Source of the DNA: Promethearchaeia archaeon | Lineage (GTDB): Archaea; Asgardarchaeota; Lokiarchaeia; Sigyniarchaeales; SOKP01 | Reading direction: 5' to 3' | Assembly: GCA_046483985.1 (NCBI GenBank) | Contig: JAWOCD010000016.1 | Location: forward strand, 34,704-98,703 | DNA length: 64,000 bases | In this document: positions 26,528-42,071 of the stretch, piece by piece | Numbering within the stretch: the stretch's first letter is position 1 | How the letters are laid out: each line of letters starts with the position of its first letter | Notes under the pieces: model-generated | Told to the model about the DNA's origin: nothing | Seen by the model: only the letters and a program-made list of their open reading frames with translations | Database searches by the model: none | Made by a program: the position numbers and the translations under genes

Positions 26528-26634
26528 GCCTCAATAGCTCAGCTGGTAGAGTGTTGCCTTGGTAAGGCAAAGGTCGGGGGATCATAGCAATTCATGAAGC
26601 AATTCGCTTCAGTGGGATAAACCCCCTTGAGGCT
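26528..26634 (+). tRNA. tRNA-Thr(GGT) with one T-loop intron (~26587-26620, position ~59/60)
   Basis: Acceptor GCCTCAA/TTGAGGC; anticodon arm TTGCC-TTGGTAA-GGCAA; T-stem GGGGG/CCCCC split by a 34-nt hairpin insert. Confidence 0.9.
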
Positions 26635-26649
26635 CTATTCATATATCAT

Positions 26650-26816
26650 GCCGGCGTAGCTTAGCTGGTTATAGCGCCAGACTCATAATCCTTCTGAAAA
26701 AAGGGTCAGACAGGATGTAAACGGAAGTCGCTAAGGCTCCCAGATGGACTCTGGAGGTCAGGGGATCATAGGAAATGGAGCATTTCGCTCTCTCCGATTA
26801 AACCCCCTCGCCGGCA
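26650..26816 (+). tRNA. tRNA-Met(CAT), elongator type, with a 61-nt insert at 38/39 (26689-26749, probably two tandem introns) and a T-loop intron (26770-26801)
   Basis: Acceptor GCCGGCG/CGCCGGC; anticodon stem CCAGA/TCTGG; BHB helices TCAT/ATGG and GATC/GATT. Confidence 0.88.
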
Positions 26817-31852: not shown

Positions 31853-32046
31853 GCCAAGGTGGCGTAGCCCGGAGTATTCTGGATTAACCCAAATATGGGT
31901 AAGAACGCACCAGTATATCTTGGATTTCTAAGATATGGTGAGACTGAAGATCTGGGTATCGAGAAAGCCATTTCATTTCGATTGGTTTCGAAAAGGTTCA
32001 AATAATAAGTGCTTTTCGCACTTGCTTGGACGTCCCTCCCTTGGCA
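31853..32046 (+). tRNA. tRNA-Phe(GAA) with four introns (31873-31902, 31914-31942, 31964-31994, 32003-32032)
   Basis: Removing four BHB-bounded inserts gives the 74-nt cloverleaf GCCAAGG TG GCGT AGCCCGGGA ACGC A CCAGA CTGAAGA TCTGG GTATC GAGGG TTCAAAT CCCTC CCTTGGC A. Confidence 0.9.
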
Positions 32047-39649: not shown

Positions 39650-39755
39650 TGGTGGCCTTGGGAGGATTTCCGCGAGAACACGAGAGGTGTCCTTTTTTCG
39701 AACCCCCGATAGCCCAGTCCGAAGCCGGGTGCCTTATCCACTAGACTACAAGGCC
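39650..39755 (-). tRNA. tRNA-Arg(TCG) with a 30-nt intron at 59/60 (39667-39696); CCA encoded
   Basis: GGCCTTG/CAAGGCC acceptor; CCCGG-CTTCGGA-CTGGG; BHB helix TTCG/CGGA. Confidence 0.92.
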
Positions 39756-41932: not shown

Positions 41933-42071
41933 TGGCGCCCACAGCGGGAATCTCATAAAACGGCGAACTGCTGCTTTTATTTTGAACCCGCGTCGTAGGA
42001 GTGACAGTCCCAAATGCTAGTCCGGGGTTTGCCATGTATAGAATTTATACGAATGTCTACACTATGTGGGC
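41933..42071 (-). tRNA. tRNA-Asp(GTC) with two introns (15/16: 42027-42056; 59/60: 41950-41980); CCA encoded
   Basis: GCCCACA/TGTGGGC acceptor; TGGGA-CTGTCAC-TCCTA; BHB helices TTCA/TGAG and TGT/GCA. Confidence 0.9.

Follow-up and report, generated by a model that had tools for sequence, protein, structure and literature searches.

Introns are extremely frequent in the tRNA genes of Asgard archaea: in three complete Asgard genomes, 92-95% of these genes are interrupted, often at non-canonical positions and by more than one intron (PMC11291895). The accessible text of the 2026 census of Asgard tRNA introns describes repeated gains, re-use of positions and partial similarity between inserts at the same site, and in that text neither a general route of arrival nor general evidence for copying or reverse transcription was found (bioRxiv 10.64898/2026.10.13.758758). 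The insert analyzed here is most similar to the non-canonical and multiple BHB introns of Thermoproteales and of the Asgard groups Atabeyarchaeia, Freyarchaeia and Jordiarchaeia, which, as far as the accessible parts of these sources go, are short, protein-spliced, located outside position 37/38, often several to a gene, subject to rapid gain and positional turnover and missed by standard finders (PMC11291895, PMC4090602, bioRxiv 10.64898/2026.10.13.758758). In contrast to these introns, the addition at our locus is not found at a separate position of the gene. It is located next to or within an intron that is conserved throughout the order, and it duplicates the anticodon-pairing tail of this old intron. 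Moreover, the present lineage is Loki-type (Promethearchaeota) and lies outside the focal families of the census, whose accessible text does not contain the words "nested", "adjacent" or "tandem" (bioRxiv 10.64898/2026.10.13.758758).

Two further systems show some likeness. The part of PMC3728597 that was accessible mentions archaeal tRNA introns that are "nested" and removed in a fixed order. Such an order is also the logic of a two-step model for our locus. The nested introns of Sugahara et al. from 2007 reportedly sit at different positions, whereas the two units of our locus would have a single 5' junction in common and no intervening exon. In eukaryotic twintrons, stwintrons and recursive splicing, one intron abuts or interrupts the splice signal of another, and in stwintrons consecutive reactions regenerate a splice site, according to the accessible part of PMC5587772. 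This remains an analogy only, as those introns depend on the spliceosome or belong to group II/III, in contrast to splicing by EndA and RtcB. The literature that was covered, with Sugahara 2007 and Tocchini-Valentini 2011 outside its scope, contained no description of two abutting units with one junction.

Relaxed splicing motifs are known as well. The formats hBH and HBh' have been described for EndA of the (alpha-beta)2 and epsilon2 types in the accessible parts of PMC4090602 and PMC5829648. The relaxed substrates of these broad-specificity enzymes resemble the insert described below in that one cut lies beside a 4-bp helix and the other one in a loop, an arrangement for which we use the label bulge-helix-loop. 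The difference is that a single EndA gene of 200 aa, known from its sequence, was found here.

Anatomy of the tRNA(CAU) gene and its 61-nt insert

The tRNA(CAU) gene is located at 26650..26816 (including the discriminator A) of the window, by which we mean the whole stretch of 64,000 nucleotides that was analyzed; the host genome (G000), in which the window corresponds to C24:34704-98703, is a 97%-complete MAG of 4.06 Mb in 128 contigs with a GC content of about 35%. All features of the gene discussed below lie on the plus strand. Its acceptor stem reads GCCGGCG/CGCCGGC, and the 5' strand of the anticodon stem, CCAGA (26677-81, read from the sequence), is followed by the anticodon loop CTCATAA (26682-88) with the anticodon CAT at 26684-86. 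An insert of 61 nt (26689-26749) separates this loop from TCTGG (26750-54), the 3' strand of the anticodon stem, and the 3' splice site was placed at 26749/26750. The gene is interrupted a second time by a 32-nt T-loop intron at position 58/59 (26770-26801), which has a strict hBHBh' motif and the hairpin GGAGC-ATTTC-GCTCT. Deletion of 26689-26749 and 26770-26801 yielded a perfect tRNA-Met(cat) cloverleaf of 74-75 nt in ARAGORN, and this restoration by precise deletion is the behavior expected of tRNA genes interrupted by BHB introns.

The gene is of Met type by its anticodon, with Ile2, the CAU tRNA for AUA, as the alternative identity. It is present as a single copy in the host genome (one match), and its exons are intact. 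The only other CAU tRNA detected in this genome is the initiator (C37:91378-91510), and a search of the genome for a third one, either Ile2 or a second Met, found none, so that the gene could encode elongator Met or Ile2. The initiator itself has the A1-U72 pair and the GGG/CCC anticodon stem, and by eye its D and T loops are interrupted by inserts and its anticodon loop is not.

Standard tRNA finders overlook or misread genes of this kind. ARAGORN in default mode, i.e. without the intron option, reported no tRNA in the whole 64,000-nt window, and the Rfam tRNA model matched only the neighboring gene. With introns allowed, ARAGORN misread the Met precursor spliced at the T loop as tRNA-Pro(cgg). 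We rejected the underlying 34/35 parse because it would give differing anticodons on the same tRNA body across the orthologs.

Inserts in the T loop are common in this region. At least five tRNA genes of the window are interrupted in the T loop, each by about 30 nt (26528-26634, 26650-26816, 31853-32046 and, on the minus strand, 39654-39755 and 41937-42071). After removal of these inserts, the mature T loops would read ATCATAA in the tRNA-Thr (26528-26634) and ATCATAC in the tRNA(CAU) (26760-26808), with A54 and T58 in both tRNAs instead of the usual T54 and A58. Since the intron-less relatives also have a T arm of this type, GGGGG-ATCATAG-CCCCC, the ATCATA-type T loop seems to be a trait of the lineage and not a misprediction of splicing.

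The 61-nt insert can be divided into two units, as described in the original prediction, and the division into 32 and 29 nt, the hairpin of unit 1 and the ATG-TAA and ATG-GAC ends were all recovered at the positions given there. Unit 1 (26689-26720, 32 nt) has a hairpin in the MFE fold in which TCTGA (26693-97) pairs with TCAGA (26706-10), extended by CC/GG, so that the unit folds as TCC-T-TCTGA[AAAAAGGG]TCAGA-C-AGGA. It contains the conserved octamer GGGTCAGA at 26703-10 and ends with a tail consisting of ATG (26715-17) and TAA. Unit 2 (26721-26749, 29 nt) forms the hairpin GG-A-AGTC[GCTAA]GGCT-C-CC with the loop GCTAA (26723-26741 in the MFE fold), and its tail, ATG (26744-46) followed by GAC, adjoins the anticodon stem. 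In the MFE structure (-21.9 kcal/mol), the anticodon arm adopts a three-way junction with both hairpins. The extra 29 nt are flanked by two copies of the direct repeat GATG at 26714-26717 and 26743-26746, and ATGG at 26744-47 can form 4 bp with T33-C34-A35-T36. The sizes of both units, which had been proposed to match those of local introns, are indeed in the range of the T-loop intron of the same gene (32 nt) and the T-loop insert of the tRNA-Thr (about 33 nt by eye).

Orthologs with unit 1 alone and the origin of unit 2

When 40 relatives were searched by BLAST with the locus as query, 31 yielded an ortholog. In most genera of the same family, CTCATAA is followed by an intron of 31-34 nt, TCCTTCTGAAAAAnGGGTCAGACnGGATGnnn, and then directly by TCTGG. 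The 134 other genomes of the family were scanned with exact patterns for two classes of inserts at the tRNA(CAU) site. An insert of 26-38 nt, homologous to unit 1, was present in 73 of these genomes, and an insert of 40-70 nt was detected by this exact-pattern scan in none of the 134. In the family genomes outside the 73, exon or intron sequence varies, the intron has slid or the locus is absent. Unit 1 is homologous to the entire intron of L002-L011, L154, L087 and L101, and orthologs with the single unit are kept across 10 genera. A single metagenome scan, queried with the distinctive T arm of the gene, added one true relative, L154 (SDBT01008288.1), which also contains unit 1 only and is distant from our locus, as the sole alignable flanking stretch is 65% identical. 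Orthologs with only one unit, which the original prediction had named as a check, therefore exist in the form of unit 1 alone.

For unit 2 the picture is different. The counterpart of this check, an independent occurrence of unit 2, did not materialize, as it was found alone in 0 of the 153 genomes of the order (allowing up to 3 mismatches over 23 nt) and nowhere else among the sequences searched. These collections contain no further genome of the genus. An exact 18-mer of unit 2 matched only three unrelated bacteria among the species-representative genomes (GTDB), and a blastn-short search of the host genome gave chance matches of 10-12 nt only and no paralogue. In viral contigs, seven exact matches to the 18-mer were obtained, of which six are near-identical copies of one stretch; none of them shows similarity beyond about 19 nt, and about 2 matches would be expected by chance according to a rough estimate of the collection size. 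As the short intron occurs alone in the relatives and unit 2 was found nowhere else, unit 1 is the ancestral intron and unit 2 an addition on the branch leading to the host genome. The absence of a long insert from all recovered orthologs likewise marks the extra 29 nt as a later, separable addition, and because orthologous genes of related genomes carry unit 1 alone, the division into two units is more than an artefact of how the sequence was read.

The source of unit 2 was addressed with shuffling tests. A local alignment with unit 1 is not significant, since 1512 of 5000 shuffles reach its score; for the 3' halves alone the number is 326 of 5000, where the shared ATG is functionally forced. 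A tandem duplication of unit 1 was rejected on this basis, and so was an origin from the T-loop intron family (778/5000 and 1831/5000 shuffles reach the score). The hairpin motif GC-ATTTC-GC was matched in a tRNA context only in the two tRNAs of the window (regex search). A closely similar intron in another tRNA gene, the mark of a transposed intron family of the Thermoproteales type, was not found in the host genome.

The same comparisons bear on the idea that the metagenome assembler joined two strain alleles of the intron in tandem. This would fit a MAG and a locus whose intron content varies among relatives. Against it, the units share only GATG, which is no repeat long enough to mislead an assembler, their similarity does not exceed that of shuffled sequences, no exon sequence is duplicated between them, and the distal tail lies in the exact functional register. 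We regard such an artefact as highly improbable.

The point at which the extra 29 nt entered the old intron can be narrowed down to a short stretch. They are bracketed by the GATG repeat and, more loosely, by CAG(G)ATG. The tails of single-unit orthologs end in ...GACAGGATGTAC or ...GACAGATGATC, and both possible ancestral tails, CAGGATGTAN and CAGATGNNC, are present among the orthologs. Because of the repeat and the two tail forms, the insertion could have occurred anywhere within about 26713-26721 (about 8 nt), and the exact old junction would be one of several equally parsimonious placements. The original prediction of a second intron inserted at the splice junction of the first one is thus retained with regard to a later, separable addition and loses its precision with regard to the junction.

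Two side observations concern the old intron in its relatives. The octamer GGGTCAGA, or at least GGGTCA, is conserved in the intron of the tRNA(CAU) gene in all four families of the order, as seen in L002-L030 and in the 73 family genomes with the short intron. Its pairing context varies. Most members of the family use TCAGA as the 3' arm of a stem, whereas in the genus g8 it lies in the loop of a different stem (CTTAT/ATAAG) and in L013 GGGT pairs with ATCC. As the sequence is conserved independently of the local structure, this suggests that the octamer may be recognized in trans by a protein or an RNA. A search of the intron for a box C/D guide for C34 revealed no candidate with extended complementarity, and Rfam gave nothing meaningful on the intron up to an E value of 10. 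The second observation concerns the 3' end. The genera g8 and g10 have a tail of the 37/38 type (TAAG-ACA or AGAG-AAA, which pairs with C32-A35) like the outgroup families, as judged by hand, and most of the family has an ATG-NAN tail that is 2 nt shorter and implies position 38/39. Given these two tail types, the splice site would have moved by one position within one family.

Splice geometry and the pathway of removal

The cleavage sites were predicted with the BHB rule, in which a central helix of 4 bp is flanked by bulges of 3 nt and each bulge is cut after its second base. Applied to two controls, the rule returned central helices of 4/4, with outer and inner helices of 4 each for the canonical 37/38 intron of tRNA-Pro(GGG) and of 3 each for the T-loop intron at 26770-26801. 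For the anticodon insert, the sole register that combines CAT/ATG pairing with a loop of 7 nt has its central helix on T33-C34-A35-T36 and the 5' cut at 26688/89 (position 38/39). The 3' cut falls 2 nt past the base opposite T33, i.e. at 26720/21 if the ATG of unit 1, ATG(1), is used and at 26749/50 with that of unit 2, ATG(2). The partition into 32 and 29 nt is exactly what an EndA ruler of this kind would give. The claim that each unit has its own ATG able to pair with the anticodon CAT holds in this geometry, and the boundaries given in the original prediction coincide with the predicted cuts. As to other positions, the central helix fails at 37/38, and positions 39/40 and 40/41 would result in the same mature sequence and offer no motif when inspected by hand. 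CTCATAA does not change from ortholog to ortholog, in contrast to the three final bases of the intron, which vary freely, and this favors 38/39 over 37/38 as the probable splice position.

None of the possible excisions corresponds to a strict hBHBh' motif. For removal of all 61 nt, TCAT (33-36) and ATGG (26744-47) form a central helix of 4/4, as expected for a BHB substrate; the outer helix, displaced by one base from the strict register, counts 0 and the inner helix 1 bp. Unit 1 of the host genome taken alone has a central helix of 3/4, an inner helix of 3 and an outer helix of 0, and its 3' cut would lack an exon helix. Between its own ends, unit 2 forms only T.G, G.T and T-A pairs and no credible BHB. 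In the single-unit orthologs, the tail spacing is the same and, by inspection, the outer helix is one base off register. As no strict motif is present here and the outer helix of the orthologs is likewise out of register, the class of introns as a whole appears to have a relaxed BHB. The half-site at ATG(1) corresponds to the ancestral 5' half, with an AAT bulge between CAT/ATG and CC/GG, and the half-site at ATG(2) represents the 3' half beside the anticodon stem. The central helix of the distal tail comprises 4 bp vs 3 bp in most orthologs.

The CAT/ATG helix itself seems to be independently supported by introns that have moved. In five relatives (L005, L012, L022, L026 and L028), the same GGGTCAGAC intron has slid from 38/39 to 32/33. 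In L005, L012 and L022, the former anticodon loop has degenerated and yet retains its pairing with the old tail (CACAT/ATGTG), and this pairing is the inner helix (4) of the new motif at 32/33, whose central helix is CCAG/CTGG (4/4). The 3' junction of this intron is therefore evolutionarily labile in sister genera. As a side result, the five slid orthologs provide a step-by-step picture of intron sliding: the old anticodon loop (ACATAC-like in L005) is now part of the intron, and a new CTGGAC+TCATAA is located at the 3' end. One of them, L026 (genome G019), has two introns in the anticodon loop, the slid GGGTCAGAC at 32/33 and an unrelated one of 34 nt, which by hand fits the canonical position 37/38 (CTCA/TGGG with an AGA bulge). 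The two introns are separated by a micro-exon of 5 nt, TCATA, which holds the anticodon.

Taken together, we consider it probable that the 61 nt now constitute one composite intron, which arose by a lineage-specific insertion of about 29 nt, located at the old 3' junction or directly beside it, and is removed in one step via the distal ATG tail. With regard to the mechanism of insertion and the one-step pathway, we infer the following course. The ancestor would have had a non-canonical intron of 31-34 nt at 38/39, which was kept in most of the family and whose 3' tail, (G)GATG-NAN, paired with the anticodon CAT to form the central helix of a relaxed BHB. In the lineage of the host genome, about 29 nt would then have been inserted at or a few bases from the old 3' end, and this insert brought a new hairpin and a second CAG-ATG-NAN tail, flanked by the GATG direct repeat. 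As only the distal tail abuts the anticodon stem, it would now set the productive 3' cut at 26749/50, and the 5' cut would have stayed at 26688/89. EndA and the RNA ligase RtcB would thereby take out all 61 nt in one step from a bulge-helix-loop arrangement, and what remains of the old 3' half-site would be the proximal ATG-TAA, folded into the hairpin of unit 1.

The thermodynamic ensemble points weakly in the same direction. The anticodon pairs with the distal tail with a probability of 0.26-0.40 in the register of the central helix and of about 0.57-0.59 when shifted by one, and pairing with ATG(1) has a probability of about 0.001 or less. The latter is explained by the hairpin of unit 1, which absorbs ATG(1) (A38-T26716 with a probability of 0.89 and T26689-A26715 with 0.99). 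The model would thus favor a single excision in which the distal tail is used and the 5' site is located in a loop. We treat this preference as weak evidence, because the folding model does not predict the central helix with the anticodon even in a single-unit construct (the host sequence with unit 2 deleted), a form that the orthologs must splice. Once the distal tail is paired, the position of the 5' cut lies in a multibranch loop and not in a clean 3-nt bulge. The best 5' half-site, an AAT bulge with CC/GG, depends on the proximal ATG, so that both sites are not presented in canonical form by any one static fold.

The host genome encodes the splicing machinery on which BHB introns depend, namely one EndA gene of 200 aa with N and C domains (C32:38230-38829, PF01974 and PF02778) and two genes for RtcB (C37:24400-25707 and C66:103302-104609). 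A second EndA paralogue was sought in this genome and none was detected. This single gene speaks against the composite intron, since it gives no sign of a broad-specificity enzyme of two subunits. It is a separate observation that many tRNA introns of this genome are non-canonical and yet a single EndA gene was found; most Asgard genomes have two EndA paralogues according to the accessible text of the 2026 census (bioRxiv 10.64898/2026.10.13.758758).

The absence of a strict BHB for the excision of 61 nt could also mean that the insertion crippled splicing, that the gene is decaying or poorly functional and that another, unassembled CAU tRNA does the work. A MAG in 128 contigs in which a third CAU tRNA was not found may indeed represent an incompletely recovered tRNA set. 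On the other hand, a perfect cloverleaf is obtained from the intact exons, the gene is the single copy in a genome that is 97% complete, and the same relaxed geometry is conserved in single-unit orthologs of 10 genera. Furthermore, the new tail restores an ATG followed by 3 nt, aligned exactly with the anticodon stem, and offers the 4-bp central helix, which is what selection for splicing would keep. We therefore think it very unlikely that the gene is crippled.

A more serious competitor is the arrangement proposed originally, in which two separate introns are stacked at 38/39, with stepwise or alternative splicing. The second BHB-type intron would have entered precisely where the first one is cut at its 3' end, e.g. 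by a reversed EndA/RtcB reaction. Unit 1 would leave first via ATG(1), the rejoined junction A38/A26721 would form a second motif together with ATG(2), and unit 2 would follow. This stepwise route appears geometrically possible; unit 2 cannot be removed before unit 1. In line with such a course, the cleavage ruler cuts at the unit boundaries for both ATGs, and all single-unit orthologs share the 5' half-site of ATG(1) (central helix 3/4, inner helix 3). Removal of unit 1 in silico leaves unit 2 with a central helix of 4 bp and a 3-nt AAA bulge, and the base of its hairpin could then serve as inner helix. The two introns spaced by 5 nt in the loop of L026 indicate that second gains nearby do occur, and archaeal tRNA introns whose motif forms only after removal of another intron are mentioned in the accessible part of PMC3728597. 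Several points argue against stacked introns: unit 2 was never found alone or elsewhere in the genomes searched, the placement of the junction is ambiguous owing to the GATG repeat and both tail types of the orthologs, the 3' cut of unit 1 would have no exon helix, and the ensemble probability of the pairing between the anticodon and ATG(1) is very low, which is weak evidence. In addition, no reverse transcriptase (RVT_1) was detected in the 97%-complete genome, and the accessible text of the census, as mentioned above, is without general evidence for gain by copying or reverse transcription. On balance, two stacked introns are possible and clearly less probable than the composite intron. The strictest version, in which unit 2 is a fresh intron placed exactly at the old 3' site of EndA, with a foreign RNA ligated into the cut precursor and fixed in the DNA, and in which recursive splicing releases products of 32 and 29 nt, seems to us rather doubtful.

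Implications for the growth and arrival of Asgard tRNA introns

Heavily and variably interrupted tRNA genes are a published feature of Asgard archaea, and the accessible text of the census leaves the arrival of their introns open (bioRxiv 10.64898/2026.10.13.758758). The composite insert of 32+29 nt is a new form of this known phenomenon. Its value lies in a clean natural comparison: dozens of relatives have 32 nt where one lineage has 32+29 nt, and the added piece, placed at an existing cleavage site or directly beside it, forms the anticodon-pairing tail anew. The two units are evolutionarily separable and consistent with the cleavage ruler, and it is possible that unit 2 is an independent intron. 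If the insertion took place at the junction, new intron sequence would seem to enter at the splice site itself. An insertion off the junction would still mean that introns can grow by internal insertion together with duplication of the splice signal and that a relaxed motif tolerates a doubled intron size. Should unit 2 after all be a fresh intron with recursive splicing, the locus would represent the arrival of an Asgard tRNA intron caught in the act and the first abutting pair of protein-spliced introns. In either case, the tRNA(CAU) gene provides a single clean example that bears on how Asgard tRNA introns grow or arrive.
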